A stretch of DNA of 64,000 nt from an uncultured Eubacteriales bacterium (GTDB lineage Bacteria; Bacillota; Clostridia; Christensenellales; CAG-917): contig ONYW01000003.1 of the NCBI GenBank assembly GCA_900322215.1, positions 9,199 through 73,198 of the forward strand. Direction: 5' to 3'. Positions within the stretch are counted from its first letter, which is position 1; every line of letters starts with the position of its first letter. Below, piece after piece: positions 15,219-49,032 of this stretch. A model generated the notes under the pieces. It had not been told where the DNA came from. It saw only the letters and a program-made list of their open reading frames with translations, and searched no databases. Made by a program: the position numbers and the translations under genes.

Positions 15219-15256
15219 ATTGCCTCGGCGACCGTACAAAAGCGATTTCCTCATAC

Positions 15257-15284
15257 AAAAAGACCGGCAAAAACCGGTCTTTTG
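15257..15284. terminator. Bidirectional terminator between TetR and the 2881-aa gene
   Basis: AAAAAGACCGG-CAAAAA-CCGGTCTTTT between convergent genes. Confidence 0.8.
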
Positions 15285-15304
15285 AATTGTTTAGAAGTTG
15301 TTCG

Positions 15305-18300
15305 TTATCTCTTGAGCGGATCGACGTTCTTTTCTCTTTGGACTGCGTCGTTTAGCCCGAGCAACTGGTTGTTGAGTTCGATGTCGTCCTCGTCAAGATC
15401 GATTGTAAAGCGTTCGCCGAGATCCTTGTCGTTCTCCGGCGCGTCCACCTCTTGCTCGAGCAAGTAGTCGTCCTTTTTCTCTTCTTTCGGAGCGACTTCG
15501 ACTTCTTCTTCGTCGAGATTTACTTCGACGTTTTCAACCTTTGCTTCTTTTTGTACGCCTGCGTTATTGACTTGTTTTTCAGACTTTTCCTTTTCTTGGA
15601 GCCTTGCTTGTCTTTGACGCTCTTGTTCTCTCTCTTCGCGGTTGAGTTTCTTCTCTACCTGAGTGAGTCCCTCTTGCTCCATATAGCCTTTGAGGAAGTA
15701 CGCTTTCTTGTTGTTGGCGACGTCTTTGAGATACTTCGCATAATCCGCGTCGGAGGTTGCAAAAATGCCCTTTTCCGCTCTCTTGTTGTCAAACTCGCGT
15801 CTTGTCATCGGCTTGTCTGCTTCAAAGAGCGGGACGTTCTTGTCGTACGGACCGTTTTCGAGTTGCGCGGTGCGTCTCTCGACGTATTCCTTTGGCACTC
15901 TGCCCTGCGCATATGCGTCGAGGAGCGCTTCCTTTCTCTCTGCGACAAGGGCGTTCTTTTGCGCCAAAAGTTCATTGAGCGTGCGCTTCTCTGCTTCGGT
16001 TGCAAGGTGCGGACCTTTTCTTTCGATCTTGCCGATTTGATCTTCGAGACGTTTAAGAGTGCGGTTGAGACGTTCGTCTTCTGAAATCACAGGTTTTGCG
16101 GCTCTTTGAGCATTCTTTGCCGCATTCTTGATATAGTCTGCGTAGCCGCGGATTATATAAGGATTCGACGGTTGGACGTTCAAGCTGAATTCATTCACGT
16201 CATGTTCGAATTCGCCTCTGTTTTTTGCTTCCGTCAGCACGTTCTTTATGTATGCGCCGCCGTTTGTCGCAAGTTGTTTGAGCTGCTCGTATGCCGGTCC
16301 GCGCTGTGCGCTCTTGTCAAGTGAGATAGCAAATTTGCTTGCTGCGGTGGCGTACGCGTCGATGAGCACTTTCGAATTCAACATGGTTTTGCCAAAACTG
16401 TCTTTCATCGTCGAGAAGGATTTGACCATCTCTTCATTCATTCTTGCCATGAAACCTTCGATAGACTCATCGTTGTTTGCAAGATACTTGGCTTCGTCAA
16501 AGTATTTGGCTTCGCCGACGCGTTTTGTGCCGTCATGGTCAAACAGAGGCAAGCCCAAGAGGTCGCCGTTTTGTTGTGGATCTTTGACGAGTAGGAATCT
16601 GTCGAGTCTGTTTTGAGCGGCGTTGAAAACCTCGGTACGCTCATTCAACCCGTCCGTAAGCATTACGGTCGTCATTCTATAGCCGTATTCCGCCATAGAA
16701 TTCTTCCTGGACATATCCGGATCTTTTTCGAGTTTGCTCATTGCCTCAACGGCTCTGCTTGCCGCCGCGGAGTTAGGCCTATTGATGAGGAAGGAAAATT
16801 CTTTGCCCACCTCATGGATTGCATCCGCACCGCTCTTGCCTGTGAGAGCCTTGTTGAAGTTCAAATTGTCAATCGTTTTTTGCATCCAATTGTTCAAAGC
16901 TTTCTTTGGCGCATTGACAAACTCTTCAGGCGATACGCCCATTTGTTTCATCATTCTGTACGACATATAAAGGCCGTTGAGCGTGGATATGCCGGCGATG
17001 TCCTCACGGAACTCCGGAGGCATAATGGCATTGCGCGAGACGTCCAGATTGCCCGGGTACATAACGGTGTCTCCCTCGACCGCGAACGACTTGTGAATCA
17101 TGCCCAAAAGTTCTTTGGTATGCGCGAATTCCTTGTTCATTCTCTCGGCGGATTCTACCGCTTTGAGTTTTTCCGCAGGATCGTCGCTCTCAATCTGCTT
17201 TTGGAAGTCGATACGCGCGTTGTCATACAAACGAAGTCCGTAGATTTTATAGCCTTCTTCGCCCTCGAAAGGTACTTTGTCATAGCCGTACTCGTCCATC
17301 TTTTTGAACACGTCGAGAATGGCTTGCTTGGTTTCAGGTCTATACTCGAAGTCCATATCGTGCAAGCGATCGAAATCTTTTTGCCCGCTTTCGTCGAGTT
17401 GAGGCAACTTTACCTGCGTTTCTTTTCCGGCGATATTTAAGTTTGTATATCCCGCTTCTTTAGTAGTCCAAGCAGTCAGCCTCAAGTTGGTCTCTTCTTC
17501 ATACGACGCGCTGATGCCCTCTTTTTCCATTTCTCCGAACGCGTTTTGAACATGAGCATAGTTCATGCCATAGTCGCCGTTTTCTCTGCCACCTCTCTTT
17601 TTCTCGAGAGCGTCGCGATAATTCGGATCCAGATCCGCCATGTGGGATCTTGCTTCTTCCAACGTGTCGCGGATTTTCAGCTTGTCCTCATCGGTCAACT
17701 CTTTGCCGTGCAGGTATTTCATATTGTCCGTAATCTCTTTTACGGAATTCACTTCTTTTTCGTATCTGCCTACGAGGTTTTCTTCCAGCCCTTTTTCTGC
17801 GACGACGACGGTGTTGTCGGCAATCTTCGCAATTCTGTCGACGTCCTCCGGCTTGAGTCCGCCGATGACGATATTCCAAAGTTTTGGATCTCTGTTCAAA
17901 ATACTCGAGTTGTATTGCACATTGCCGAGCATTTCAAGTTGCGGGTTGGCTTTTTCCTCTGCCGTCAAATATGGACTTGCCGCCTGCTTGACTTCCGCAA
18001 GGCTCATAGTCTTCATGTTGTCGTGTATCCTATCGCTCAACTCTTTTGCGGCGCCGGTCTTTTGTCTCAACACCCTCCAATACTCGTGTTTGACTTTTTC
18101 TTCAAGGCGTTCTCTGCCGACAGCGTCCATAAGGGCGTTCTGGCTCTCCGGAGTCATCACTTTGAGCGCTTCACTAAAAAACACGCCAAGACGTCTTACG
18201 TTGTTTTCGGCTCGCTCGATAAATTCTCTCTTTTCAAGCCAATTCTTGCCTTGAGGCTCGTTCTTCGGGGCTTTTTCGAGTGCGAGTATCTTGGCGACGA

Positions 18301-21300
18301 TGTTTTCTTTCGTGACTTCTTCGCCCTTCTTAAAGAGCCTTCCCGAGAATTCCTTCGGGACTTCGACTTCTTTTTCCGGTTCCGCTTGGACTTGTGCGAC
18401 AGGTCCTTGTTGCGCCTGGAATTCCTTTCCGTCCGTCAAACCGTATTCTTTTGCGAAACGGCGAGTTGCAAACTCTTCCGCCTCTTGGAGAAGTTGTGGG
18501 CTTTCTCTTTCCACGTACGCCTCATAGAGAGCGTCGCGATCCGCCTCGTCATAGTCGTTTAGGTCAATCTTGTTGCCTTCAAAAGCGTTGTTTGCCAAGG
18601 TGGCTATATACTCCTCTTTTGACATCAAACCGCTCTTTTTAAACGGCGTCGGAAGCGTGTCGAACTCGCCACGCATGATGACCTGATTTGAACGCGCTAC
18701 GCGGTAGGACTCCGGAATACGACCGGAAGCGACGTCATCCTCGAGTTGTTTGAGATAGTCGGATTTTTGATTTGTGATCTCTTTTTCCTTGGCGGATTTT
18801 GCTTGCTCCAAAACCTGAAGCTCGTCGTCCTTTGCAAAGTCGGCGTCTGCGCCAAGCGATTGCTTTCTTGCGGCGATTCTGTCTTCAAGTTTTTTAAGCT
18901 CTTCCGCCTGCTTCTTCATGAGGTCGTTGAAGTCTTTGTCAGGCTTTAAGTCAAGCTCGTCTTTTGCGGTCTTGTAGAAGTTTTCGACCTTTGCATTGAA
19001 TTCGTCAACTTCTTTTGCAAAACTCGTCTTGCCCTTTGCAGTGACTTGGATCTTCTTCTTTGTCTCGTCGGAGATTTCCGTGCTGTTCGCCACAACGTCT
19101 TTGATATATTTGTTTGCGTCTGTAAGCAGCTCTTGAAGCGCACGATAATCAGGGGTGCCACGCTCTGCGGATTTTGCAATCAAAACCTTTTTTGCCGCGG
19201 TTTGCGCGATAGCCACGAGTCTTTCTTGTGAAATAGCCTGCGTTGTTTCTTTGTCTTTTCCCACCCTAATTTCCGCATTAAGTTTGAGATACTCGGCGAT
19301 ATTCGCGTCTATTTGCGCCTTCATCTCCGAAACGGATCTGCCGTTGTCTTTTATGTAGGCGAACTCGTCGAACGGCTGTGGCTTTGTGAATGCCAAATCC
19401 TTTCCTACATAGTAGGAAATGCCGAGTATAGACGCGTCCTTTTGAGGCTCGTTCATAAAGAAGAGTCTTTCAAGGTGGGAGTCCGGATCTTTGAACGCAA
19501 CCTTGCGGTCGTTGATCTCCATTTGCGCGTTGTTCATAACGGTGGTATCAAAGAATTCTCCAAGACCTGCGTTGTGAGCGCGGACTTCCGGATCTATATC
19601 CATATAGCGGAATGCTTCAAACGTACGCGGAGCGCCATAACTTACTCGCGGTGAACTTTTGCTGTTTTTGCAAACTTCGAATAGCGCCTGTGCGCCCGTC
19701 TTGCCTGCAATTGCGTGATCGAGGTTTTGGCTCATCTTTTCTTGGAAGGTCTCGCGCATATATTTTGCGGGATGCTCCAGGAACTCTTCCGGCTCGATGC
19801 CGTTTGCCTTTGCAAAGTTCATTGCAATATACATCGAGCTTAGGTGAGTGACTGCCGCGTCTTCATATCTAAGGTATGGCGGGAACAATTCGTTTCTTAC
19901 GACTTCGATGTTGCCTGCCATAGCAAAGTTGTCCTCTGTGACGGGGAAATGCTCTTTGATATAACCGAGGAGTTCGTCCACGTGGGCGCGCTCTTCGTTC
20001 ATCTTTCCGGCGGCTTCGGCGATCTTCAATGCGTCACCGGATTCTATGGCTTTTTTGTATTCGCGAATCGTGTTGGCAAGAGGTTTGAGTCCGTATTCTT
20101 TTGACTCACCCTCTTCGCCGACGACGCCTGCGCTGTCATAGCCGAATTCGTGCATCTTGGCAAACACGTGCAAGATTGCAGTCTTCGTCTCGGGAGACAT
20201 CTTGAATTCCGCGTTGTTCCATTTTTCCATTTCCTCTTCTTTGCCTTCTTTGAGGACAACGAGGGTTTCGTTCGTTCGAGGATTTATGGTCGTTTCGACT
20301 ATGGTTGGATCGAGTCCTTCCTTTTTCATTTGCTCCGCACCGGCGTCACGCTCTTTGTGCAAAGACGCGTTTTGCATCTGCCTGCTGTTTTCCGTATAAC
20401 TCGAAAAACTCGGATCGTCAGGTTTCAAAAGGAATTCGTTGGCTTTTTGCAAGTCGTCCGCCATTTTGAGTTTGTCCTTCCACTTCAAATCCTCGTTTTT
20501 CTGTATGTCGTCCAAGGCTTTGAGCGTCTGCTTGGTATATTGTGGAGAACCCATATATTTTGGATCCCTATCCCTTGGCAAAACAAAATTGTCGCACTCT
20601 TTCGCCAAGGCTTTCATATCCTCTTCTTTCAAATACTTTGGCAACTCTGCGGCGATATATTTGATGTTTTTGGCAAAATCCTGAGTTCTGAAATTGCCGA
20701 GCATTGACTTCTCTATGCCCTTTAATCTTTCTTTCGAAATGTAAGGACTGGCCATTCGGAGCGCCTCATCAGGCTCGATAGGTGCTTTGCCCGTAAGTCT
20801 TGTCTTAATAGCGCCTATTCGATCCATCTCTTGTTTGAGTGCGTCCTTTTCCGCGCCATCGGGCATGGCGTTATATTCCTTGTCCTTTTGGTTGTAAATC
20901 TCGTTCATTGCCGTATCAAGCCTACGAGAAAACACCTTGTATGCTTCGTTTTTTACGTTTTGAGGCAACTCTTTAAAGATTGCGTCCTTTTGTTCGGGCG
21001 TGAGCTTTTTAAGGAGCGAATCTACAAACTCCTTTCCTCTCACCCCGTCTCCTATACGGACGAAATCTGCCCTAACGTTTTCCATCTCGGTCTTGTTCGG
21101 GTCATTGTATTTATCGCGATACGAGTATGATATAAAGCGTTCCGTGAGCGCCACGAAGTTGTCTTTCGTGACAGTTTCACCCTTGCGCACGAATTTGATG
21201 CGCTCATCGTGCGGCAACGCGTTTTCCTTGTCTATTGCAGCCTGTCTCTCCGCCTCTTCGCGCGCTATACGCTCCTGCTCTTCGCGGTGCGCCTCTTCGT

Positions 21301-23950
21301 TTGCGGCGGTGTAGATCTTTTCCATCTCCGTCTGCGTGAAGAATTGACCGCGCTCTACAAGCCCTTTTTCGAGCATATATCGCTTTGTGAGGAACTGACG
21401 TTTCTCTTCAAGCGCTCTTTCAACGAAGTTGTCGTAGAGGTATTTCTTCTCGCTGCTTGAAAGTTCGCTTGCCGTTTCTTTGTCGTAATATCTTTCGATA
21501 TAATCCTCGACGTCGCCGAGGTCGTCCGCCGCAAAGAAAGGCGGGAGTTGTGCGTTCACGTCACCGTTATCCAGTTGTTGCATACGCGCGTTATAGAACA
21601 TAGCGGGCACTTCGCCGTTTCTGAAACTCTGCGTAAGGTATGCCTTCTTCTCCTCAACGGATTGTTGTGCGGCTTCGCCCTGTGCATAAGCGCTTGTGTC
21701 GCCGGGCTCGTTCATTTGCGCTCTGTAATTTGCGACGTTCTGAGCAACCATATTCTTGTACGGGTTGTTGCAAGTGACGGTCGCCTTATACTCGGCGGCT
21801 TTTTCTTCAAATGAGTATCTTTCGATATATTCATGGTCGATCCATTTGTCAACGTAGGATTTGCCGTCGTTGACAAAATTAAACATATCTTTGAGCGCTC
21901 TTTCGTCGCCAGTCAGTTGACTGTTTGGCTTTGTGAGCGCATCGCCGAGACCGTGTACCATCAAATATTTTGCCGCCGCCTTTTGCGCTATCTCGACGAA
22001 CTCGCTGTTTGAAAGCGCCCTGTCACCTTCTCCCGTCTCCAGTTCGTTGGTCTCTATATAGGTGACGACGTTCTCTTGGATTCTTGACAAGAAATCTGAC
22101 GGCGATTCATAGTTGTTTGCCATATATTCGCACTCGTCAAAGCCCTGCGACTCGTGAATCGTAAACGTCTTGGAATCATAATTCGTTATATTCAACAATC
22201 GTCCGTCCTCAACAGGCTCTTTGACGATAAGGAACCGATCAAGGATAGATTTGTGGGCACGGAGTTCTTCGCCATGATGCTCATACATTTGTTGGTACGG
22301 TCCAACCACCGTCGTGTGGAAAGTGAATGTTGCCACCTGGTTGTGCAGTTTGAGGTCCGCGTCTTTTTCAAGACCGCAGAGCGTCTCGATGACGTTCATC
22401 TCATTGTCATCGCCATACCTACCTGCCCCGTACACTTTGTGTTGAAGGTCATAGATTGCCGATGCAGGAGATGTTTGATCCTTTAGAAGCTCGAACGAGT
22501 TGACTTTTTCGAATCCCTCCGTATAATGCTTTTCAACCGCTTTTAACGGAGACGCCAAAAACTCGTCGACGTCCAGGTCGTTTTCTTTGATATAGTTGTA
22601 AACGTTGTATAATCCGTTGATTATGGACACGCTTCTTACGTCTTGTCTCATATCCGCCGGCAAATTGTTGTTTGACATACCGCCGACGTTGCTTTGATAG
22701 ATGTCCGACTCGTCCATAGAGAAGTTGTTGTGCACCACGTCCAAGATGTCTCTCATCTGCGTGTTATGCTTGTTCCATTCCTGCGCTAGACGGACGCTCT
22801 CTTTTTCGTCGTGTGCGTCGAGGGCTTGTTTGTATGCTTCAAACGTGTTGTTGAGCGCGGAGAAAGCATAGTTTTTTGTGTCCAAATCTTCTGCGGATCC
22901 CGTTGGCGCATAGCCGTACTCCTCAAACTTTGCAAACACCTCTTTTATGGCGTTCTTCGTCTGGTCGGAGTAGCGCATATCAAACTCGCGCATACGCTCA
23001 ACGTCCGCCTCTTTTCCCGGTTGTATCGTGCTGAAATAATTTTCTCTCTTGTCAGGAGTTTGCACCACCGCAGTCGGATCCATGCCCATGTCGACAATTG
23101 CCTGTTCTCTCGTCTCCTCAAGGTTGTGCCGAGCCGATGTCTCTAAGCTCTCTCTATAATATTGGAGTTCTTTGAGTTGCTTATCGGTTGTCACGATATT
23201 GGCGTTTATATCGTCCATTATCGCCTTGACTTGCTCCTTCTCTTCTTGGGACATGGAGGCGTCATTGTCGACTCTTTGTTTCATATCCTCTGTCGGAGCG
23301 GACAGGGTGTGCGTGCCAATGCTTGCGACTGTTCTGTCGCTGACAGGAATATATTTGTCTGCCGCTGTCACGATCTCGTCAATCGTCTCGTTCGGCAGGT
23401 TTTCCGCAACCAAATTGAAGAATAAATCACGTCTGTTATCGATATATGAAGTCGGAATCTCCAGCTCTGAAAAGCGAGGGTCCGAAAGGCTTTCCTCTGA
23501 CATGAACGAGGAGGCAATTCCTTTTGCCTTGTCAAGCGACTCCGCGTTTGCGATAACGTCGGCAAGCTGGTTTTTTGCGTTTTGAAGCTTTGCGTTCGGG
23601 TTCTGCTGCTTGAGTATTTCAAACGCTTTTTCGTCCGTAATCTCGGGATTGTTTCTGATTGCCGATGCGATGTTGTCTTTTGCGCGGCTGTAAACACGGT
23701 TTTTCTCATCATCCGAGAGACCGTTAAAAATCTCGCGTTTCTTTTCTTCAGGCAACGCGGCATAGAGTTTTTGAATCAATCTGTCGTAGACGGCGCTATC
23801 TTCATTCAAACTATATCCTTCTACTGCGATTTGGAAGTAAGATTTCCCTGCCTCGTCAACCGTTCTTTTTGCGACAGCGCGAAAATCATTGAGAATGGAA
23901 ACTATATTTTCCTTTGTAGCCTTTTGGTTTTCTTTAAGCAATTTGCCCAT
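15305..23950 (-). CDS. Giant (2881 aa) charged protein of three ~930-aa tandem repeats; candidate secreted substrate
   Basis: Uninterrupted ORF with RBS AGGAG; no signal peptide or TM segment visible; repeated motifs TKxAIxxVFxKxxEYGY and KGExVTKxN; acidic C-terminal tail. Function unknown. Confidence 0.85.
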   Translation of the reverse strand: MGKLLKENQKATKENIVSILNDFRAVAKRTVDEAGKSYFQIAVEGYSLNEDSAVYDRLIQKLYAALPEEKKREIFNGLSDDEKNRVYSRAKDNIASAIRNNPEITDEKAFEILKQQNPNAKLQNAKNQLADVIANAESLDKAKGIASSFMSEESLSDPRFSELEIPTSYIDNRRDLFFNLVAENLPNETIDEIVTAADKYIPVSDRTVASIGTHTLSAPTEDMKQRVDNDASMSQEEKEQVKAIMDDINANIVTTDKQLKELQYYRESLETSARHNLEETREQAIVDMGMDPTAVVQTPDKRENYFSTIQPGKEADVERMREFDMRYSDQTKNAIKEVFAKFEEYGYAPTGSAEDLDTKNYAFSALNNTFEAYKQALDAHDEKESVRLAQEWNKHNTQMRDILDVVHNNFSMDESDIYQSNVGGMSNNNLPADMRQDVRSVSIINGLYNVYNYIKENDLDVDEFLASPLKAVEKHYTEGFEKVNSFELLKDQTSPASAIYDLQHKVYGAGRYGDDNEMNVIETLCGLEKDADLKLHNQVATFTFHTTVVGPYQQMYEHHGEELRAHKSILDRFLIVKEPVEDGRLLNITNYDSKTFTIHESQGFDECEYMANNYESPSDFLSRIQENVVTYIETNELETGEGDRALSNSEFVEIAQKAAAKYLMVHGLGDALTKPNSQLTGDERALKDMFNFVNDGKSYVDKWIDHEYIERYSFEEKAAEYKATVTCNNPYKNMVAQNVANYRAQMNEPGDTSAYAQGEAAQQSVEEKKAYLTQSFRNGEVPAMFYNARMQQLDNGDVNAQLPPFFAADDLGDVEDYIERYYDKETASELSSSEKKYLYDNFVERALEEKRQFLTKRYMLEKGLVERGQFFTQTEMEKIYTAANEEAHREEQERIAREEAERQAAIDKENALPHDERIKFVRKGETVTKDNFVALTERFISYSYRDKYNDPNKTEMENVRADFVRIGDGVRGKEFVDSLLKKLTPEQKDAIFKELPQNVKNEAYKVFSRRLDTAMNEIYNQKDKEYNAMPDGAEKDALKQEMDRIGAIKTRLTGKAPIEPDEALRMASPYISKERLKGIEKSMLGNFRTQDFAKNIKYIAAELPKYLKEEDMKALAKECDNFVLPRDRDPKYMGSPQYTKQTLKALDDIQKNEDLKWKDKLKMADDLQKANEFLLKPDDPSFSSYTENSRQMQNASLHKERDAGAEQMKKEGLDPTIVETTINPRTNETLVVLKEGKEEEMEKWNNAEFKMSPETKTAILHVFAKMHEFGYDSAGVVGEEGESKEYGLKPLANTIREYKKAIESGDALKIAEAAGKMNEERAHVDELLGYIKEHFPVTEDNFAMAGNIEVVRNELFPPYLRYEDAAVTHLSSMYIAMNFAKANGIEPEEFLEHPAKYMRETFQEKMSQNLDHAIAGKTGAQALFEVCKNSKSSPRVSYGAPRTFEAFRYMDIDPEVRAHNAGLGEFFDTTVMNNAQMEINDRKVAFKDPDSHLERLFFMNEPQKDASILGISYYVGKDLAFTKPQPFDEFAYIKDNGRSVSEMKAQIDANIAEYLKLNAEIRVGKDKETTQAISQERLVAIAQTAAKKVLIAKSAERGTPDYRALQELLTDANKYIKDVVANSTEISDETKKKIQVTAKGKTSFAKEVDEFNAKVENFYKTAKDELDLKPDKDFNDLMKKQAEELKKLEDRIAARKQSLGADADFAKDDELQVLEQAKSAKEKEITNQKSDYLKQLEDDVASGRIPESYRVARSNQVIMRGEFDTLPTPFKKSGLMSKEEYIATLANNAFEGNKIDLNDYDEADRDALYEAYVERESPQLLQEAEEFATRRFAKEYGLTDGKEFQAQQGPVAQVQAEPEKEVEVPKEFSGRLFKKGEEVTKENIVAKILALEKAPKNEPQGKNWLEKREFIERAENNVRRLGVFFSEALKVMTPESQNALMDAVGRERLEEKVKHEYWRVLRQKTGAAKELSDRIHDNMKTMSLAEVKQAASPYLTAEEKANPQLEMLGNVQYNSSILNRDPKLWNIVIGGLKPEDVDRIAKIADNTVVVAEKGLEENLVGRYEKEVNSVKEITDNMKYLHGKELTDEDKLKIRDTLEEARSHMADLDPNYRDALEKKRGGRENGDYGMNYAHVQNAFGEMEKEGISASYEEETNLRLTAWTTKEAGYTNLNIAGKETQVKLPQLDESGQKDFDRLHDMDFEYRPETKQAILDVFKKMDEYGYDKVPFEGEEGYKIYGLRLYDNARIDFQKQIESDDPAEKLKAVESAERMNKEFAHTKELLGMIHKSFAVEGDTVMYPGNLDVSRNAIMPPEFREDIAGISTLNGLYMSYRMMKQMGVSPEEFVNAPKKALNNWMQKTIDNLNFNKALTGKSGADAIHEVGKEFSFLINRPNSAAASRAVEAMSKLEKDPDMSRKNSMAEYGYRMTTVMLTDGLNERTEVFNAAQNRLDRFLLVKDPQQNGDLLGLPLFDHDGTKRVGEAKYFDEAKYLANNDESIEGFMARMNEEMVKSFSTMKDSFGKTMLNSKVLIDAYATAASKFAISLDKSAQRGPAYEQLKQLATNGGAYIKNVLTEAKNRGEFEHDVNEFSLNVQPSNPYIIRGYADYIKNAAKNAQRAAKPVISEDERLNRTLKRLEDQIGKIERKGPHLATEAEKRTLNELLAQKNALVAERKEALLDAYAQGRVPKEYVERRTAQLENGPYDKNVPLFEADKPMTRREFDNKRAEKGIFATSDADYAKYLKDVANNKKAYFLKGYMEQEGLTQVEKKLNREEREQERQRQARLQEKEKSEKQVNNAGVQKEAKVENVEVNLDEEEVEVAPKEEKKDDYLLEQEVDAPENDKDLGERFTIDLDEDDIELNNQLLGLNDAVQREKNVDPLKR

Positions 23951-23983
23951 ATCTAAACTCCTGAAAAGTCATTTTCTTATTTC

Positions 23984-24006
23984 AAAAAAGCCTGATTGTA
24001 TCAGGC
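23984..24006 (-). terminator. Terminator overlapping the VirB4-like stop codon
   Basis: Minus strand GCCTGA-TACAA-TCAGGC-TTTTTT. Confidence 0.6.
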
Positions 24007-26658
24007 CTTCTTGTCTTGGAACAGCGACGCAACGCGCTGGGACGCGATGATGTCGATGCTCGTTCTGCTCTGCGGGCCCGTGATGATGAATGCACTACCG
24101 CGCGGATTGTTGATGATTTGATCTTGCTCCGCCTTGTTGATATTTCCCGCCTTGCTGTACAGCGTGCAAAGGTCGTCCATATCGTTCGGCGCAAGCGCGA
24201 AGATGAAGGAATACTGGCAAGCGTTGATGATTGCCGTGGACTTTCTTATGATATCCTGGCTTCCGACAAAGTCCTTTATGTTTTGCGTAATGATGATTTG
24301 CATACCGTTGTACTTTCTGATACGCTTTGCAAGTTGGTACATAAAGTCGAGCGCTATCGGGTATTTCGGATCGATGAAGACGTGCGCCTCGTCGATTGCC
24401 ACGACTATCTTTCTGTTCGTATTGTATTTGAGGTTGAAATCACGGTTTTTGATAATTTCATTATCAAGCCATTTGAGAACGAGGAGCATCTGCGCGTTTG
24501 CGATGACGCCGTTCTTGTTGGCGAGCAGGCTTTGGAAGTTGAAGACCGCAAAGTTTTCCTTGACGGAAAGCGTGCTCGGGCCGTTCCAAAGTTTTGCGTT
24601 TCTTCCGCCCGAGGCAAACTTTGAAATGAAGTTTTTGAGGACGCGGAGGTTTTCTACGTCGTATGCCACCGTGGCTTTTTCGAGTTCTTCCAAAATGTAG
24701 GCGTAGAGGTCGTCGAAAATCGGGTAATCTTCCGCCGTAAGCACGGAGAAGTCGGAGTCTTCGGTGATGCCCTTTCTTCTGTACAGTTCGACCGTCATGT
24801 TGTTGAGCATTTCAAGCGCGTGAGCGTCGATACCCGGCAAAATCTCGCGGTAGAATTGCTCTAAGAATTGCAGGTGTACGGAGAACGCGCTGCTCGCGCC
24901 TTCCGTATCCTCGTCCGCTTCAAGCGTCGTGATGACGTGGAAAGGATTGAGCCTTCCGTGGCTCGCCGTTCCTACGTCGATGAGTTTTCCGCCGAGGTTG
25001 GAAGCTATGATATCATACTCGTTTTCAGGGTCGAGAATGAATATCTTGCAGTTTTCGGTCGCGAGGTGCGTGAGAAGCGTCTTCGTGGAGTAAGATTTTC
25101 CCGAACCGGATTTGCCCATGATGACCATATTCGAGTTGACGCGCTCGTCGTTTCTTGCAAAGAAGTCGACGATGACCGGGAAACCTTTGCTTTGACCTAT
25201 CGTCACACCGCCCTTCTCCATAATGGACGAGAGAACGAACGGGAACACTGCCGCGATAGAATTTGAGTGAATAGAGCGTTGGAACTCCTCCATAACGTCG
25301 TTTTGCGACGGGTTCATAGAGATGAGCGCACGGCTTTGGTTGCAAAAGTCGTCCGAAAGTTCAAAGCCTTGTTCGGACAAAACGCGGAGCAAACGCTTCT
25401 TTAGATTCTTCTTTGAGTCCTTGGACCTGTTGTAGAGTTGAATGTGAATATTGACCTTGTAGAGGTTTTCGTTGTCGTTTTTGAGGAGCGCAAGCAGTTG
25501 GACGAGGGTGTTGATATGCGTCGTCCTGTCAATGATAGAACTTGCCCTGAAAGACTGGTCGCTTTGCGACAAGAGTTCTTGCAAGGAGCGGTCTATCATC
25601 TTGACTGCTTTTTCCTTTTCATACGGCTCGAGGTTCATGACGATCTTAGTGTCTTCCGTGTTGAAAAGTTGGAAGCCCCAAGCGTTACCTACCGCGAGCG
25701 GATAGTTGCGGATTGTGAAGCAGAAGGATTCCTCTCCGTCTATCTTCGTACTTCTGGACGAGAACGTGATTTCGTCGGGAAGGATCCAGTCCATATACTC
25801 GCGTTCGTCCATCACGTCGATGTCCTCTTCGTTGAATTTGTCGGTAAAATTGTATTTCAAGAACACGCAAAGTTCTTTGGTGTCCAAAATATGCGTTGTC
25901 ATACCCGCTTCCGCAAACGTCTCTACGGCGTTTGTCAGAATTTCGTCTATAACGCTCTTTTGCGCGTCATAAACTACGAGATAGAAGCCGGGCACCATGA
26001 TCTTGTCATCGCCCGAAGCATTGAGATTGTTGTAGACCGCGATACGGTCTTGTATGACGCGTTCGCGAACGAAAAGTTCCTGCTCGGTGAGTTCGCCTGC
26101 GTCAAAAGTCTTTTTGAGGTCGTCGCGCTTTTCTTCTTCCGCCGCGATAAAATCGTCGAAGCGGATCTTTCTGTCAATCTTGATGAGTGATGCACGGGTT
26201 TTGCCCGATATCTCGCGAATGACCTTGCCGAAGTAGTTGTTGATGATTTGGTCTTGTCTGAAACCTGTGAGGAGTCTGAATTCTCTCGAGCCGATTTCAA
26301 GCACACCGCCGTAATAGTCGCCGAATTCGATATAGCCGTCTTTGACGTTTTTAAACGCCACGAACGACTTTATGTTCGACGCGCTTTCCATATCCTGTTT
26401 TACGTATCTTTTCCCCGAAAACAGGTATCTCACGAAGGTACGGAAGAAGAGATAAAATCGTTGCCCGTCATACGGAACGTACAAACTCGCCACAACAAGC
26501 ACGACTATCGCCGCGATAAAGAATCTCGCGATGCCTATGTTGCTAAGGCATATAACGACGGCGAGGACTATGCCGAGAAGCGCAATCAAAATATCCGCAA
26601 CGGATATATTCTTGAAAAACTTAACTTTAACTTTTGCAGTTTTTGGAATAACTCTCAT
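24001..26658 (-). CDS. VirB4-like T4SS ATPase with N-terminal PrgI/VirB3-like membrane domain
   Basis: Two N-terminal TM helices; Walker A GKSGSGKS; DPENEY; Walker B VAIDEAH; RIRKYNG...ITQNIKDF. Confidence 0.88.
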   Translation of the reverse strand: MRVIPKTAKVKVKFFKNISVADILIALLGIVLAVVICLSNIGIARFFIAAIVVLVVASLYVPYDGQRFYLFFRTFVRYLFSGKRYVKQDMESASNIKSFVAFKNVKDGYIEFGDYYGGVLEIGSREFRLLTGFRQDQIINNYFGKVIREISGKTRASLIKIDRKIRFDDFIAAEEEKRDDLKKTFDAGELTEQELFVRERVIQDRIAVYNNLNASGDDKIMVPGFYLVVYDAQKSVIDEILTNAVETFAEAGMTTHILDTKELCVFLKYNFTDKFNEEDIDVMDEREYMDWILPDEITFSSRSTKIDGEESFCFTIRNYPLAVGNAWGFQLFNTEDTKIVMNLEPYEKEKAVKMIDRSLQELLSQSDQSFRASSIIDRTTHINTLVQLLALLKNDNENLYKVNIHIQLYNRSKDSKKNLKKRLLRVLSEQGFELSDDFCNQSRALISMNPSQNDVMEEFQRSIHSNSIAAVFPFVLSSIMEKGGVTIGQSKGFPVIVDFFARNDERVNSNMVIMGKSGSGKSYSTKTLLTHLATENCKIFILDPENEYDIIASNLGGKLIDVGTASHGRLNPFHVITTLEADEDTEGASSAFSVHLQFLEQFYREILPGIDAHALEMLNNMTVELYRRKGITEDSDFSVLTAEDYPIFDDLYAYILEELEKATVAYDVENLRVLKNFISKFASGGRNAKLWNGPSTLSVKENFAVFNFQSLLANKNGVIANAQMLLVLKWLDNEIIKNRDFNLKYNTNRKIVVAIDEAHVFIDPKYPIALDFMYQLAKRIRKYNGMQIIITQNIKDFVGSQDIIRKSTAIINACQYSFIFALAPNDMDDLCTLYSKAGNINKAEQDQIINNPRGSAFIITGPQSRTSIDIIASQRVASLFQDKKA

Positions 26659-26679
26659 ATCATTATTTCCTCAAAATAC

Positions 26680-28089
26680 TCACTCTTCGTCTTCCTCTTC
26701 TTCGGACGCTTCATCTATGCTGCTAAGGCCTCCAAAGGTTTGTGCCCCTCCGTTTGTGAGCGCTTCCACGATTTGGTTCGCCGTCATTTGATTTGTTTGA
26801 GACTTGCCGAAGTTGAAATTGTTCGTGTCGGCTTCGCGTCTCGAGCCCGAATCGCTATCCGAGTTGTTCGATCCCGACTTGTTGTCCGTAGGTCCGTCGG
26901 TACTGTTTTTGAGCTTGTCGGCTACGCCGTTCTTGTCGCCGTATTTCGGATCCTCGCTGAGTTTCTCGCCCTCGTTCGGATTGTTGGTCTCGCCCTCTTT
27001 CTTCTCTTTGTCGTCGCCCGACTCCTTGCCTTTGTCCTTGTCCTTTCCGCCGAACAACTTCTTTCCGCCTGCCATAAGACCTTTTCCTGCAAGTTTGAGA
27101 CCGCCCATTGCCGCAGCCGCGCCGAGGCGACCGAGGGACGCGTCCATAAGTTCTCTGGAGCCGGCGCCTGCGCTGAGCAAGTTGCCGATGAGTGCGGAAC
27201 TCCTTTGCATAGCATAACCGCCGCCGATGATAATAAGCAGTTTGAACAGCCCGTTCAAGAATCCGTTGTCAAAGAAGACGACGTCCGTCGGGGTTATCAG
27301 CGAGATGAGCAGACAATATATGTTCAAATACAGAATAATCCCGTAGCCCGACATAAATTTGAGCAAAACTTGTTCTCGCCATAGTTTGAATCTTCCGCCG
27401 TCGTCCAAGACGTTGGAGGCGATAGAAAACGGAGACACGAAGAACAACACGCCGATGCTTATTGCGCGATCCACGAATTGCACAAGTGCGATTGCGAGCG
27501 TGAACAACAGCACGAGTCCCGTGATCCAAGAAAAAATAAAGTCAAAATCTTTAAGATTGATTGCTTCCCACACAAAGTCGGTGTCCATATAACTGTGCGC
27601 ACCGCTGACAATTGCGTCGTAAGCCGTTTGATTGGCGATTTCCGCGTCCTGCGAAAATGCTCCGAACAAGAACGAACCGATACTCCCCGCACCGTTACGC
27701 GTTGCCTCATAGAGCACTCCCATGAGCGTGTTGAGCGCCCAAACAAGCGTCAACATAATGGAAGGCACGAAGAAAAACAGTAGCAGCGTCTTAAACGCTT
27801 TCACCGCCACTTGTCCCGGAGAAACGTCGGGCTTTTCTTTGATAATCACCATAATAATCCGCGCGATTGTAAAGAATATCAACACAATAAAACCGACGAC
27901 CGCGGCAATTCTAAAACCGTTGGAGAGCGTATCGCTCCTCAACATGTAAGAAATGAGGTCGGTGTCAGTCCCGTCGATATTGACAGGCTCTATTCCGCAC
28001 AATTTGTTCGTGCAGGAGATGAGTCCGTCGATAAGTCGCAGTAGAGATTTTGTGATTCCGTATAGAAACTCCCAAAACCAATCAAACAT
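26680..28089 (-). CDS. VirB6/TrbL-like polytopic membrane protein
   Basis: Five to six hydrophobic segments, DRAISIGVLFFVSP...W motif, Gly-rich then charged low-complexity tail, located directly upstream of the VirB4-like gene. Confidence 0.7.
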   Translation of the reverse strand: MFDWFWEFLYGITKSLLRLIDGLISCTNKLCGIEPVNIDGTDTDLISYMLRSDTLSNGFRIAAVVGFIVLIFFTIARIIMVIIKEKPDVSPGQVAVKAFKTLLLFFFVPSIMLTLVWALNTLMGVLYEATRNGAGSIGSFLFGAFSQDAEIANQTAYDAIVSGAHSYMDTDFVWEAINLKDFDFIFSWITGLVLLFTLAIALVQFVDRAISIGVLFFVSPFSIASNVLDDGGRFKLWREQVLLKFMSGYGIILYLNIYCLLISLITPTDVVFFDNGFLNGLFKLLIIIGGGYAMQRSSALIGNLLSAGAGSRELMDASLGRLGAAAAMGGLKLAGKGLMAGGKKLFGGKDKDKGKESGDDKEKKEGETNNPNEGEKLSEDPKYGDKNGVADKLKNSTDGPTDNKSGSNNSDSDSGSRREADTNNFNFGKSQTNQMTANQIVEALTNGGAQTFGGLSSIDEASEEEEDEE

Positions 28090-28099
28090 TTTTTACTCC

Positions 28100-28975
28100 T
28101 TAGTCCGCGTAAATCAAAATCGCGGTAATCCTAACCGGAACCCTCGTATAATCGGGTTCCTTTTCTCTTTCGTATTTGTCTTTTGCAGAGTTGAATGTTC
28201 CTTCTGCCGTGTTGCGCGTGCTGGTCGCTGCGTCAAAGGTCGTTTGAGCCGCCGCTTTGTCCTCCGCGGACGCCGAAGAATCGGACATAATCGCTTGATA
28301 CGCTTCCTTCGCCGCATTGAACGCGTCGACCGCTTTCTGCCACATCTTTTCCGCGATGCTAAGCTCTCGTTTTGCAGGATCGTAGCAGTTGTTGCTTATG
28401 CGAAAAACAATATATTGTCCCTCTTCGAGATGGTATCTCTTTTGAGAGGCTTCGCCCTTTTTGCCCCAACTCTTCAAATACATTTCCTGCCATTTGTCCG
28501 CTTTTCCGGGTACGTGAAAGGAAACCTCTGCAACCGCATCGGCAATAGCAGGCTCGTCACATTCGTCAGCAGAGTAATCTCCGTCCTCTCCCGCGTAGAT
28601 TTTTGTCGGGAGATCGTCTTCGTCCATGACGAAGACTTTGACGTTGACGTCGGCTTCCACCGTAGAATCAAAGAATATTGCGATTTCTCCGACCGAAAGG
28701 GCTTCTTCCGATTTGATGAATATATAGGTATATTCTCTGCGCTCTTCCTCCGAAAGCGGAGAAATGAGATCGTTGACCGCCTCGTCGCTGTAGAAATCCT
28801 CCATACTGTAGTCGTATGTATCGGACTCCGTGTCGACGAGACGAATCAAAGAATAATTTTCTCTATAATCATCATCGTTTTCAGTCCCTTCTCCGAGATT
28901 GTAACAAGCCGTTAAACTGAACGTACAAAGGATAATCGTAATTAATAGAAAGATAACTTTCTTATTAATACGCAT
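28100..28975 (-). CDS. Lipoprotein of unknown function within the T4SS-like operon
   Basis: Lipobox SLTAC; acidic body; C-terminal Ala/Lys-rich coiled-coil; start overlaps the pilin gene. Confidence 0.8.
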   Translation of the reverse strand: MRINKKVIFLLITIILCTFSLTACYNLGEGTENDDDYRENYSLIRLVDTESDTYDYSMEDFYSDEAVNDLISPLSEEERREYTYIFIKSEEALSVGEIAIFFDSTVEADVNVKVFVMDEDDLPTKIYAGEDGDYSADECDEPAIADAVAEVSFHVPGKADKWQEMYLKSWGKKGEASQKRYHLEEGQYIVFRISNNCYDPAKRELSIAEKMWQKAVDAFNAAKEAYQAIMSDSSASAEDKAAAQTTFDAATSTRNTAEGTFNSAKDKYEREKEPDYTRVPVRITAILIYAD

Positions 28976-29264
28976 ATCCTTGCCACCAATCCGTGAAGAT
29001 CGTGATGCCGACTTGGAGCATGATGAGCAATACGAAGATCAGCACGAAGCCGACGATAGCGTGTTGAAGTGATTTTTTTGCATTTTCATGCTCTTGTGGT
29101 TCGCTGGCGCGCGCATATTTTACGCCGAGCAAAATGCAGAAGATCGCTCCCACTGCGCCGACGACTGCGAGCAATGCAGGAACTAAGATCTTGCACACTT
29201 CAATGATTGGGTTGATGATTTTTGTCATTTCCGCAGAAGTGATGCCGATAAGTGTTTGAAACAT
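28965..29264 (-). CDS. VirB2/TrbC-like pilin-sized membrane protein
   Basis: 99 aa; two hydrophobic helices separated by GVKYARASEPQEHENAKKSLQHAIVG; first gene of the VirB6-VirB4 operon; RBS AAGGAAGG. Confidence 0.7.
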   Translation of the reverse strand: MFQTLIGITSAEMTKIINPIIEVCKILVPALLAVVGAVGAIFCILLGVKYARASEPQEHENAKKSLQHAIVGFVLIFVLLIMLQVGITIFTDWWQGYAY

Positions 29265-29306
29265 AGTTCTTACCTTCCTTTTAAAGAATTTTTGTTATTT
29301 AATGTC

Positions 29307-29340
29307 ATTATAATACACGAGGTATTACAAATCTATTACA
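29307..29340 (-). promoter_or_regulatory. Promoter of the pilin operon with tandem TGTAAT-N5-TGTAAT box
   Basis: Minus strand TGTAATAGATTTGTAATA (29340-29323), 10 nt, TATAAT (29312-29307). Same layout as at 50345-50378. Confidence 0.7.
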
Positions 29341-29368
29341 CATTTTAATCCCCGAAGGGGTGTTTTTG

Positions 29369-32300
29369 TTATACTTTGCGACGCTTACGAAGCAGCAAGA
29401 CGACAAACAAACCGATTGAGACGAGCAAGCAAACGACGATTATCGTTATCGTTGTGGCGACGTTTGCGGTGTATTGTCTCGTAAATTCAAAGACTTTTTC
29501 GTTGCCTGCCGCGTTTGTGATGACGATCTTATACTCGCCTTTTTCCTTGATTTCGGGGAGCTTCATCGATTCGGACGTAACGACGACCGTTTGTGTGAGG
29601 TTGCCGTTCTTATACACCTGAATGACGTCGCCGACCTGGCAATCCGTCAAAGTGACGTTCTCTATCGTAGAACCGCCGTTTTCAACACCGCTTAGTTGCG
29701 CCTTCGGGATGGTCTTGTCGATGGCGATTTCAAACGAGAATTGCGCCGACGACACCATAGAAGATACCGTGACGAGATACAAACCTCTTTCGTCAAAGAT
29801 CATCTTTGAATTGTTGGCGTATTGCGTGACGTTGTTCATATACGAGATAAGCACACCGTCGCCCGCGTCGTATTGCACGTTTGTGATCTTGTAGGTGTAC
29901 GGAGAGACGTATTCAAAGCGGGATATCTCGTGCGTTACGACGTAGAAGTAGAAGTACGTCTTGTTGCCGATATCGTCGGAGATGAGGAATTCCCATTTGC
30001 CCGTTTCGCCAAAGCCGATCGCTTGAGACGGATCGTATTCCACACCGTTGAGGACGATGAGGTCTATCTTTGAAGAATCCTTGTTGACTGTCACGAATCT
30101 CGCGCTTCCCTGCGTGATGACTCCGCCGTTTTCTACAGGTCTGTCATTGTAGCCGTTTATGAACGCAAATTCTACGAGAGTGTCCTTTTTGACCATTGTC
30201 GTGAAGATGTTGCCCGCAACGTCGGTGATATAGAAGCGATACGTGCCGTCCGCAGTCATGACGTCGCCGGACTTGTACGGCATTCTCTCTCCGCCGCTGA
30301 GCGAGACTTCACATTTTACGGACGAATCGAATTCGATCTTCACGTTGTCCTGCGTCATCACGACGTCGTTTATCGTGACTATCTTCATGAAGGACGCCAA
30401 ATCGATATCGAGCGTCTTGCGGACGAGGTTGACTTCAAACTCATATTCAAAGCCGTATTCGTCGACGTAAGTCACGACGCTGACGTATTCGCCCGCTTCT
30501 TCTCCGTCCGCCGGGTAGGCAACGACGAGAGGCATATCTGCCCTGTTGCCGTCAATGCGGATCTCGTAGCTTCTTGCGATCGTTTCAAACGTCACGTTGA
30601 AGTTGGAATACACTTTGTTTTGTTCGCCCGCGACGATTTGTATCGGTTCGGGATCTCTCGACGTGCGGATAGTACGGCTCACCGAGATCGTATCCGTGCC
30701 TCTATAATGCAGGAGCGTTTGCGTGACGTTGCCGTATTCGTTTCTCATCTTGAGAATATACACGCCGTCGCCGAGGCTTCCGATGACGTCGGTCAAGAGT
30801 TCGGGCACAAGTCCCGTGCCGTTGCTCTTCAACACGTCGTATGCGACGATTTGTTGCTCGCCGTATTGTACGATCGCTTGAAGAATACCGTCGTTTATCA
30901 TCTTTGTCGCATCAATGGAGAGTTTCTTGTTTGTATAGCCTTCCGCAAGTTTCAACGCCTTTTCGTTGTAGCCCGTCAGGTAGTCGTGTTTGAAGGTGAA
31001 CGACTGACTTGCTATCTCAAAACTGAGTTCTACGACGTTGCCGAACTCGTCCGTGATAACGATCTCGTACATTCCCTCTTCCTTCCAGGCGAGAGAGCAA
31101 ACGCCGGACGCGTCGTGGAGGTGAATTTGTTCTCCGCGGACGCCGTTGCGAGTGAGCACGTAGGTGATGTCTTCAAAGTAGATATCGATAGTAACGCTTT
31201 CGTTCGCCTTGAAGCTGCGCTTTGTCGAAGCGGAATACGTGTTGCTCGTTCCGTCCGTATACTCGGTCGTGACTACCACGCGGAGTTCGCTCGACATGAT
31301 GACGACAAACTTCGCGACTCTACCGTATATGTTCTTTGCGATGACGGAATAGAAGCCTTCCTCCGTCATGAGGATCTTCTTGTAGCCTTCGCTTGGAGTG
31401 TAGACGATTTGATAGTTCTCAAAGTCCGTCGTGTCGGAATGTGCGATTTCAACCGACGTCACGTTTTTGAAGCTTGTCTCGACGATGAAGAATTCGCCGT
31501 TGAGGTATATTATGTTGTCCGTCGACGTAGGCGTTACTTGTTTGCCTTCGTCGCCCGTTATTTCAAACGTAATCTCAGGCAATTCGCCGCATAGGATAGC
31601 CTTGACAAAGTACGGTTGATACTCTTCGCTGTACATGATGCGCATCGTCACGGACGCTTCGCCCTCTTTCGGTGCTTCCACCCTATAATATACGTGACCT
31701 TCCTCGTCTATTCTCACGAGAATGTCGACGCCAACCGTTTCCTCGCTCGTAATTTGATACGTCTTGTTTCTTTCCGCCTTGTTCAAATCCGGAATGATCA
31801 TCGAGGAGTACACTTGTTGATATTGATGAATCACGTTGCCGCTCTCATCGTAGACCACGGTATCTTCGGACAGCGAAAGTTGATATACGACCGAATACAG
31901 CGCGCCGTCGACGACTTCATAGCGGAGATATTGCTTCTTGCCGTTCTTCTCTACCATAAAGACGATGGTTGCGCTTCCGTCGTACTTGACTTCCATGTGG
32001 TCGTACGCATACGCGTCAGGCGGATAGACATATTGACCATCTTCTTCCGAGATAGAGTCCGCCGGGGACAGTTTGAGGCTGAGTTCGCGCTCGTCCACGA
32101 AGAGTTTTGCTCCGTCGGCTTCCTTGTTGACAAACGTAAATTCGCTTTCGTTGCCGAGCGTATCTCTTGCAACGACGCGGTACGTGCCAAAGCGGTTGAC
32201 CGTCACGTTGCTGACGCCTCCGCTCTCGGAGAAACTGCGAATGAGCACGTCGTCGACGTATACGTCTACTTCACTGCAGATAGAATCGTCGGTAAATTGC

Positions 32301-48218: not shown

Positions 48219-48235
48219 TTCTTTTTTCTCTCCTG

Positions 48236-49027: not shown

Positions 49028-49032
49028 TGCCC

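Follow-up and report, generated by a model that had tools for sequence, protein, structure and literature searches.

What is the function of a 2,881-amino-acid (aa) protein encoded at the end of a type IV secretion system (T4SS) operon: is it carried by the machine, built into it, or unconnected with it? The question is raised by the open reading frame (ORF) at 15305-23950 (minus strand) in a 64,000-nucleotide stretch of DNA, hereafter the window (positions 9,199 to 73,198 of contig ONYW01000003.1, assembly GCA_900322215.1). The host is an uncultured Eubacteriales bacterium with a genome of 1.59 Mb and 47.8% GC. An earlier note, made from the sequence alone, described three tandem modules of about 930 aa with an acidic tail, and proposed a helical cytoplasmic protein that is either exported by the T4SS as a polyvalent effector or kept inside as a scaffold. 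The reading favoured here, at about an even chance and from sequence comparison, is that the three-unit protein is a soluble modular cargo of the adjacent Gram-positive T4SS, which resembles those found on the integrative and conjugative elements (ICEs) of Mycoplasma, and that it carries a C-terminal docking tail. Related loci (L numbers) come from uncultured rumen and gut Clostridia. Positions of all features are given in Table 1.

Gene and unit architecture

The ORF is open throughout and encodes a product of ~325 kDa. Its ATG is preceded at 7 nt by GGAG and follows the VirB4 stop codon by 50 nt, which places the gene immediately downstream of VirB4, as had been stated. The protein was cut at aa 916 and 1868, and the resulting units (U1, U2 and U3) were aligned in pairs. 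End-to-end alignments were obtained for U1-U2 (23.2% identity, E 6e-37), U1-U3 (23.1%, E 2e-45) and U2-U3 (27.4%, E 1e-62). The U2-U3 alignment scored 216 bits, against at most 24.6 bits for 50 shuffles of U2; the repeat is therefore real and far above chance. The modules of about 930 aa were thus recovered. All twelve anchor peptides listed for them in the earlier note were located (aa 6/922/1874, 331/1255/2207, 570/1493/2449 and 778/1742/2682, as three collinear sets), and its unit borders were right to within a few dozen bases.

Units are acidic, with isoelectric points (pI) of 4.7-5.9. The tail, described beforehand as acidic, has 31 D+E against 14 K+R (pI 4.2). A hydropathy scan (19-residue window) of the whole protein gave no transmembrane-like segment and no N-terminal signal, in line with the earlier note; the N-terminus is hydrophilic.

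Family size and unit number

An exhaustive HMMER search with U2 of 1.84 billion representative proteins returned only 69 clusters. Members range from one unit (~800-1,050 aa) through two units (~1,900-2,000 aa) to three units (2,880-3,140 aa), and some are larger; the L003 ortholog (P0008) has 2,905 aa and likewise three units. In a tree of units, the U1, U2 and U3 types formed three clades (100/100 support) common to several proteins, as expected from the old duplications that had been suspected. Since the type clades recur across proteins, the triplication is an old one, and the unit types keep a fixed order. Two-unit proteins are composed of a U2-type and a U3-type unit.

Unit number differs between loci: L012 carries 2+2 units, L011 one and the gene studied here three. 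The single-unit protein of L011 (L011:12722-16150) is near-identical to U3 plus tail of L009 (L009:16037-19426), and its unit is separated from the L009 U3 by a branch length of 0.02. It therefore goes back to a recent deletion, in frame, of U1 and U2, with U3 as the sole unit retained together with the tail. The 4,367-aa member P0019 has three units and three extra copies of the C-terminal third, from which at least two sub-modules per unit are deduced (N-terminal part plus core, ~1-580; C-terminal subdomain, ~580-920).

Two tandem two-unit paralogs (1,927 and 2,013 aa) are encoded on contig C34 of this genome (C34:14740-27059, L001:4740-17059), among housekeeping genes and next to luxS and a purine/uridine phosphorylase-family gene (PNP_UDP_1). 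In L003, luxS directly follows the whole T4SS locus; in L024 the T4SS locus is followed by two short genes, then luxS, then a phosphorylase-family gene.

Searches for known families

The whole three-unit protein had no match in Pfam, NCBIfam or the PDB sequences. For all 26 units of the close alignment, Pfam (E up to 1) and PHROGs gave scattered chance matches only, such as a GA module in four units. The best hit of the unit profile among PDB sequences had E 1.4. Foldseek searches with the U2 model gave best E values of 0.033 against the PDB (template-modelling score <0.2) and 0.35 against BFVD; the U3 model gave 0.087 against the PDB. No match to U2 was found by tblastn in 72,556 plasmids, and three larger members scanned (P0046, P0049 and P0066) contained no Pfam domain. 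Nuclease, methylase, helicase and other DNA-related domains were found neither in the three-unit protein nor in its units (Pfam, NCBIfam). Across Pfam, NCBIfam, PHROGs, PDB and BFVD, the unit therefore matched no known family; a match to a known non-secreted one is what the earlier note had held would count against export.

Several specific identities were considered and rejected. A VirB1-like cell-wall hydrolase often follows VirB4 in Gram-positive T4SSs (PrgK, CwlT, TcpG). A VirB1-like or lysozyme-like substitute was discarded here on misfitting motifs, the lack of Lysozyme/SLT, CHAP or NlpC/P60 matches in Pfam and the lack of a fold match. Fic-like and terpene-synthase-like sites were discarded on misfitting motifs and the lack of a fold match.

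Predicted structure and conserved residues

AlphaFold2 was run on U2, with the 26-unit alignment, and on U3 plus tail. The U2 model (mean predicted local distance difference test, pLDDT, 87.6; predicted template-modelling score, pTM, 0.73) consisted of helices nearly throughout, with one small beta hairpin. Its last 27 residues (926-952), the inter-unit linker, had pLDDT <50 and are predicted to be disordered. In the model of U3 plus tail (pLDDT 85.2, pTM 0.74), four strands form a sheet at 280-317, and pLDDT is 25-32, with no secondary structure, over residues 924-1013 (protein aa 2792-2881). Structure prediction followed by Foldseek, a check that had been proposed in advance, thus gave confident helical models that agree with the predicted helical protein, and no useful fold match. 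The term new fold is used below for a fold unmatched in the PDB and BFVD.

A search for conserved residues, also proposed beforehand, gave 11 polar positions that are identical in 25 of the 26 close units. Ten of them lie in the most conserved core of U2 (E1279, K1284, Y1286, N1347, E1349, R1352, R1361, R1442, D1453 and N1460); the eleventh, R1753, lies outside it. The first six core residues (E1279-R1352) are placed by the model in loops between helices. Among 120 non-redundant units, the near-invariant residues (U2 numbering) were E363, K368, Y370, N431, D/E433, R436, R526, D537, N544 and R837, all polar and gathered in two loops and the neighbouring helices. That polar residues are so strictly retained, with background identity between the 26 units otherwise at 20-25%, favours a binding or catalytic site within every module over a mere spacer.

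The single exception among the 26 units is U1 of the 2,881-aa protein, in which 4 of the 11 residues are replaced (D355, G423, S426 and N519, in place of E, D, R and R). U1 units of five relatives keep these residues, one with a single D-to-N change. The U1 considered here may be a degenerate module.

The C-terminal tail

The tail contains a motif with the core h-x-h-D-h-D-D (FTIDLDE here, from aa 2848, with its start 34 residues before the C-terminus). Among 31 members of the family with one, two or three units, the start of this core falls 32-34 residues before the end. Twenty-five tails align nearly gap-free around G-E-R-h-x-h-D-L-D-D-D-x-x-E-h-N-N-D-I-L (in shorthand, GERhxIDLDDD..ELNNDIL), and proteins with aligned tails usually end in ...K-D-x-L-K-K. 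The weaker acidic copy ~35 residues before the main motif reads hEhNLDEEE or VEIDLDEE in relatives. The motif is considered a candidate docking signal for the type IV coupling protein (T4CP), and the segment GERFTIDLDEDD a candidate interface to the T4CP cytoplasmic domain.

Searched with the tail profile, this genome gave matches to three family proteins only (E 1e-11 to 1e-16). No further carriers were found; p438, a 438-aa mini-member of the family encoded in the window, matched weakly (E 2.5). By eye, GARISVDVDD was seen in the p438 tail, ~40 aa from its end. Two distant unit-family proteins of L014 end in ...IDLDD..MSMDD (...IDLDDSSMSMDD), the tail type of a family of proteins found on contig C52.

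Linkage to the secretion system

The unit family directly follows VirB4 in 12 independent loci (the window, L003/L020, L006, L007, L009, L011, L012, L014, L024, L025 and L026, and partly L010 and L022). A T4CP is present in the same operon-like cluster as the three-unit gene. L008 and L023 each carry a pair of family members just upstream of their own kinase or regulator. Downstream of the family gene the neighbour varies by locus (TetR, LuxS, GNAT, bPH_2/PMSR) and bears ordinary cellular annotations.

VirB4 of this type occurs in 9 of 25 same-genus genomes, and the unit family in only two of the 25. In L013, L018, L019 and L021 the slot after VirB4 is filled by other hydrophilic proteins of at least three further families, which gave hhalign probabilities below 1% against the unit profile. 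L014 has its two distant unit-family genes and then a member of the C52 family, which is unrelated to the unit.

Evolutionary rates and recombination

Across loci, VirB4 is 85-88% identical, against 33-46% for the three-unit protein. Ratios of non-synonymous to synonymous substitution (dN/dS) were calculated by the method of Nei and Gojobori against L025 and L026, and also against L003 for VirB4 and the giant surface protein of the locus. They were 0.27-0.29 for the three-unit gene (L025 and L026), 0.03-0.05 for VirB4 (L003 and L026), 0.01-0.06 for the pilin and 0.09-0.12 for the surface giant (L026 and L003); for VirB4 and the giant, dS was saturated against L025. By these ratios the three-unit gene is under purifying selection and not decaying, yet is the least constrained of the locus genes compared.

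Synonymous divergence was mosaic. Against L025, dS was 0.20 for the three-unit gene, while VirB4, VirB6, the lipoprotein and the giant were saturated (proportion of synonymous differences ~0.75). Against L026, dS was ~0.1 over aa 1-1900 and ~1.2 over aa 1900-2881, with the break at the U2/U3 border. From this mosaic it is concluded that the three-unit gene and the machinery have separate histories and that units act as recombination modules. The pattern indicates frequent homologous recombination among island variants.

Contigs 95-99% identical to parts of the gene (e.g. 16350-17365 and 21230-22584) and to the upstream T4SS genes were present in two bovine gut metatranscriptomes. Since the depth of contigs is an unreliable gauge and carried-over DNA is possible, they are taken as a sign of probable transcription only. 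Contig depth was alike on either side of the hairpin at 23990-24006, which lies just ahead of the three-unit gene; this hairpin is terminator-like or attenuator-like and may be an attenuator between the machinery genes and the candidate cargo gene. The hairpin at 15258-15283, between the three-unit gene and the convergent TetR gene, is likely the terminator of the former.

The island and its other genes

The same-genus genome G005 lacks the 37.7 kb between 15223 and 52891, and at its empty site TetR directly abuts tRNA-Ala/Ile and a Fic gene; the interval is therefore regarded as an island. It comprises an FMN reductase and a two-component system in addition to the whole T4SS locus and the three-unit gene. 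Between this genome and that of L003, VirB4 is 88% identical and RpoB just 55%, which indicates that the island is horizontally mobile. No integrase, relaxase, oriT-like feature, DDE transposase or CDS22-like gene was seen in the island, and direct repeats resembling att sites at its junctions were not longer than 10 nt. Relaxases of PF03432, PF02486 and PF03389 were absent genome-wide; one Mob_Pre (MOBV relaxase) is encoded on contig C15, unlinked to the island.

Table 1. Positions of features in the window, numbered from its first nucleotide
Feature	Position	Strand	Remarks
Island, ~37.7 kb	15223..52891		relative to same-genus genome G005
GC-rich palindromic hairpin	15258..15283		short T run on plus strand, A run on other side
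Three-unit gene, whole ORF	15305..23950	-	three helical units and disordered acidic tail; last gene of T4SS operon
C-terminal tail (aa 2786-2881, 96 aa)	15308..15595	-	acidic, disorder predicted
Tail motif GERFTIDLDEDDIELNNQLLGL (aa 2845-2866)	15353..15418	-	from tail alignment of family
Weaker upstream acidic motif copy NVEVNLDEEE (aa 2807-2816)	15503..15532	-	by sequence
Unit 3 (aa 1869-2785)	15596..18346	-	U3-type; second unit of two-unit paralogs
Unit 2 (aa 917-1868)	18347..21202	-	U2-type; also first unit of two-unit paralogs
Most conserved core of unit 2 (aa 1279-1460)	19571..20116	-	from unit alignments
Unit 1 (aa 1-916)	21203..23950	-	U1-type, confined to three-unit proteins
Hairpin across VirB4 stop	23990..24006	-	TTTTTT next on minus strand
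VirB4 ATPase, Mycoplasma-ICE type	24001..26658	-	NF045975, 569 bits (cut-off 590); P-loop_TraG
VirB6-like polytopic channel protein	26680..28089	-	MMCAP2_0566 / Mbov_0396 family
Lipoprotein, 291 aa	28100..28975	-	LTAC lipobox; fast evolving
T4SS_pilin-like membrane protein, 99 aa	28965..29264	-	T4SS_pilin match
Surface protein, ~4,100 aa (4,131 aa)	29369..41764	-	N-terminal signal-like segment, C-terminal transmembrane anchor
Type IV coupling protein (VirD4/TraG)	41674..44250	-	family match
Lipoprotein, ~1,320 aa	44250..48275	-	MBG domain
Response regulator	48236..49027	-	family match
p438 (438 aa, soluble)	49033..50349	-	mini-member of the family of the three-unit protein
Histidine kinase, LytS-type	50511..51821	-	His_kinase PF06580 and HATPase_c; seven hydrophobic transmembrane-like segments

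By profile (positions 609-921, E 2e-25), the p438 protein has the unit's C-terminal subdomain. Its gene is flanked by those of the histidine kinase and of the response regulator, and p438 may act as a regulator coupled to secretion. Both the subdomain and GARISVDVDD are kept in L008 (72% identity).

The giant surface protein contained no Pfam domain and had no similarity to the three-unit protein. It is 57-64% identical in most related loci (89% in L026), is always placed between T4CP and pilin, and is likely a contact or adhesion component.

Two further T4SS-like gene sets were noted. Contig C52 of this genome (C52:52003-62446) carries a second, orphan T4CP (58% identical) and a paralog of the MBG lipoprotein, with neither VirB4 nor VirB6; this T4CP gene is followed by three paralogous hydrophilic proteins with acidic tails of the type ...DDLNMSMDN. 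In L026, 5 kb downstream of the three-unit gene, a second T4SS-like locus begins (L026:23307-28664) with kinase, regulator, MBG lipoprotein and T4CP.

Assessment of export and of the alternatives

Cargo is favoured over a machine part because the gene holds a constant position at the operon end and, in sister systems, unrelated families take the same slot. The same choice is supported by a unit number that varies from one to more than three, by the unlinked paralogs, by the lowest constraint in the locus together with an independent recombination history, and by the lack of a Sec signal combined with a fixed-position motif on a disordered tail, which is kept in the L011 derivative. If the protein is exported, the T4CP, a coupling ATPase, would bind the tail motif and pass the unfolded chain, led by its C-terminus, through the VirB4/VirB6 channel. 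The protein would be delivered either to the surface of the cell or into another cell that the giant surface proteins of the island hold in contact. Each module would carry an independent functional pocket (E-x4-K-x-Y ... N-x-D-x2-R ... R ... R ... D ... N ... R) that binds or modifies a target; stringing modules together would multiply or diversify this activity, and the last module with the tail would be the minimal exportable form. Several observations weigh against export. At 325 kDa the protein is larger than any experimentally verified T4SS substrate known to us. The tail motif is not common to the other candidate cargo families of this genome, and might just as well attach the protein to a partner in the cytoplasm. 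No T4SS lies near the C34 paralogs, which persist all the same. No match to a fold or family in Pfam, NCBIfam, PHROGs, PDB or BFVD points to an activity, and no immunity-like gene adjoins the three-unit gene, which makes a classical antibacterial toxin role unlikely. A wider and distinctly doubtful proposal is that a relaxase-less mobile monoderm T4SS island of rumen Clostridia would inject giant modular proteins of new fold into partner cells, with modules serving as enzyme or ligand-binding units around an invariant E/K/Y/N/D/R pocket, and that p438 would be a secreted regulator coupling machine activity to island expression, as FlgM and ExsE do in flagellar and type III systems.

The protein might instead assist the machine from the cytoplasm, as an adaptor that recruits substrates, as a platform for chaperones or as an inner scaffold, docked by its tail to T4CP or VirB4 and not exported. 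Its constant position after VirB4, the fixed order of unit types, purifying selection (dN/dS ~0.28) and the conserved polar sites suit this role, and the tail motif would be as useful for docking as for export. We consider it unlikely, however, and the internal scaffold of the earlier note is disfavoured with it: the family is missing from most T4SSs with this type of VirB4 (the VirB4 type is found in 9 of 25 same-genus genomes, the family in 2), other families fill the slot, unit number runs from one to more than three, paralogs occur away from any T4SS, and the gene is the least constrained of those compared in the locus and recombines apart from the machinery. Somewhat more improbable is a passenger of conjugation, sent to the recipient with DNA to protect or establish it in the manner of polyvalent proteins. 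Such a role would fit the T4CP, the horizontal mobility of the island (VirB4 88% against RpoB 55%, L003; empty site in a same-genus genome), the MOBV relaxase elsewhere in the genome (C15) and the frequent DNA exchange seen in the mosaic dS. It is at odds with an island that lacks a relaxase, integrase and oriT-like feature in a genome without PF03432, PF02486 or PF03389, with the absence of detected DNA-related domains and with acidic units (pI 4.7-5.9), which would be poor at coating DNA.

Exported structural material (an extracellular fibre, coat or cell-cell bridge), with no intracellular target, is a further and quite improbable explanation. The modelled shape, large helical beads on a string with flexible linkers, would be suited to it, and the island encodes giant adhesin-like surface proteins as well; the conserved polar residues of the putative pocket in each unit, however, suggest binding or catalysis over packing. 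Least probable of all, in our judgement, is a cytoplasmic protein unrelated to secretion, for example structural or storage, that merely travels with the island. The C34 paralogs among housekeeping genes with no T4SS nearby, and the lack of an export signal of known type, would agree with that. Against it, the family adjoins VirB4 or two-component genes in 14 independent loci, in hosts down to 55% RpoB identity, a mini-member lies inside the regulatory operon of the locus, and a C-terminal motif is held at a fixed position on a disordered tail.

Comparison with known systems

In effector-translocating T4SSs, VirD4 reads C-terminal signals of the substrate: the Glu-rich E-block of Legionella Dot/Icm substrates, BID plus tail in Bartonella Bep proteins and XVIPCD in the X-Tfe effectors of Xanthomonas. 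Like these substrates, the three-unit protein is soluble, lacks a Sec signal, is encoded next to a T4SS and has a signal-like C-terminal element on a flexible tail; it also evolves fast and varies in copy number. It differs in being a candidate substrate of a monoderm system of Mycoplasma-ICE type, in its family-specific motif, which is neither XVIPCD nor BID, and in its build, with 2,881 aa in three copies of one ~930-aa module with no matched fold. X-Tfe effectors combine XVIPCD, a folded domain of ~120 aa, with an adjacent immunity gene. An X-Tfe-type toxin was rejected here, though with no profile made for XVIPCD, as no immunity gene is adjacent and the tail consists of a ~22-aa motif within a stretch predicted to be disordered.

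Polyvalent proteins, according to Iyer, Burroughs, Anand, de Souza and Aravind in 2017, reportedly fuse varied enzymatic domains (methylase, helicase, peptidase, ART and others). They share with the three-unit protein a giant, multi-module, soluble build and a place on a transfer-associated element, and have been proposed to be delivered to the recipient. The three-unit protein, in contrast, repeats a single uncharacterised module three times and has no detectable enzyme domain; the label polyvalent effector, in its published sense, was therefore not retained.

For the VirD4/VirB4 system of the Streptococcus suis 89K island, SspA-1 was reported as a released substrate (PMC4897608), and the island is a transferable ICE (PMC3132442). 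In both cases a Gram-positive T4SS-like system is proposed to release protein and not DNA alone. The proteins are unrelated, and the candidate cargo in the window has its gene inside the operon and bears a conserved tail.

The conjugation module of Mycoplasma agalactiae ICEA comprises CDS5, CDS14-CDS17 and CDS19 (PMC6030558), and CDS19 was described among channel-module proteins with predicted transmembrane domains (PMC6030558). The island resembles Mycoplasma ICEs in its VirB4 (NF045975) and VirB6-like protein (NF045848, NF045889), which fall in or next to those families, and in its T4CP, surface lipoproteins and gene following VirB4. The host, unlike Mycoplasma, belongs to the Clostridia and uses the standard genetic code, and no NCBIfam ICE model matches the three-unit protein. 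With no such match and no transmembrane segments, the protein was rejected as a counterpart of CDS19.

For Patescibacteria, a monoderm-type T4SS, similar to the FATA class of mating-pair formation (MPF-FATA), has been described with a VirB2-like pilin, usually no relaxase and a proposed non-conjugative function (PMC12102498). The likeness lies in the MPF-FATA-like T4SS, the pilin and the lack of a relaxase in the island; the phylum and VirB4 lineage are different, and the passages searched mention no candidate cargo family.

Significance

The arrangement of a T4SS with its cargo is already known; new here are the module, the candidate signal and a monoderm, apparently non-conjugative island. 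To our knowledge, protein cargo of Gram-positive T4SSs is almost undocumented, and we know of no translocation signal established for such cargo. The family offers a candidate signal in the ~22-aa motif of its disordered tail, a naturally occurring minimal form of the proposed cargo (U3 plus tail, L011) and a conserved putative pocket. The island itself is a mobile T4SS island of 37.7 kb with no detectable DNA-processing genes, and it circulates among gut bacteria of cattle and sheep. Should the protein not be exported, the family would still provide a large uncharacterised helical module with a strictly conserved site, worth a structure. If it is exported, the three-unit protein would surpass in size all T4SS substrates known so far, would add a new fold and would give a handle on the cell-to-cell interactions of uncultured Clostridia with small genomes.

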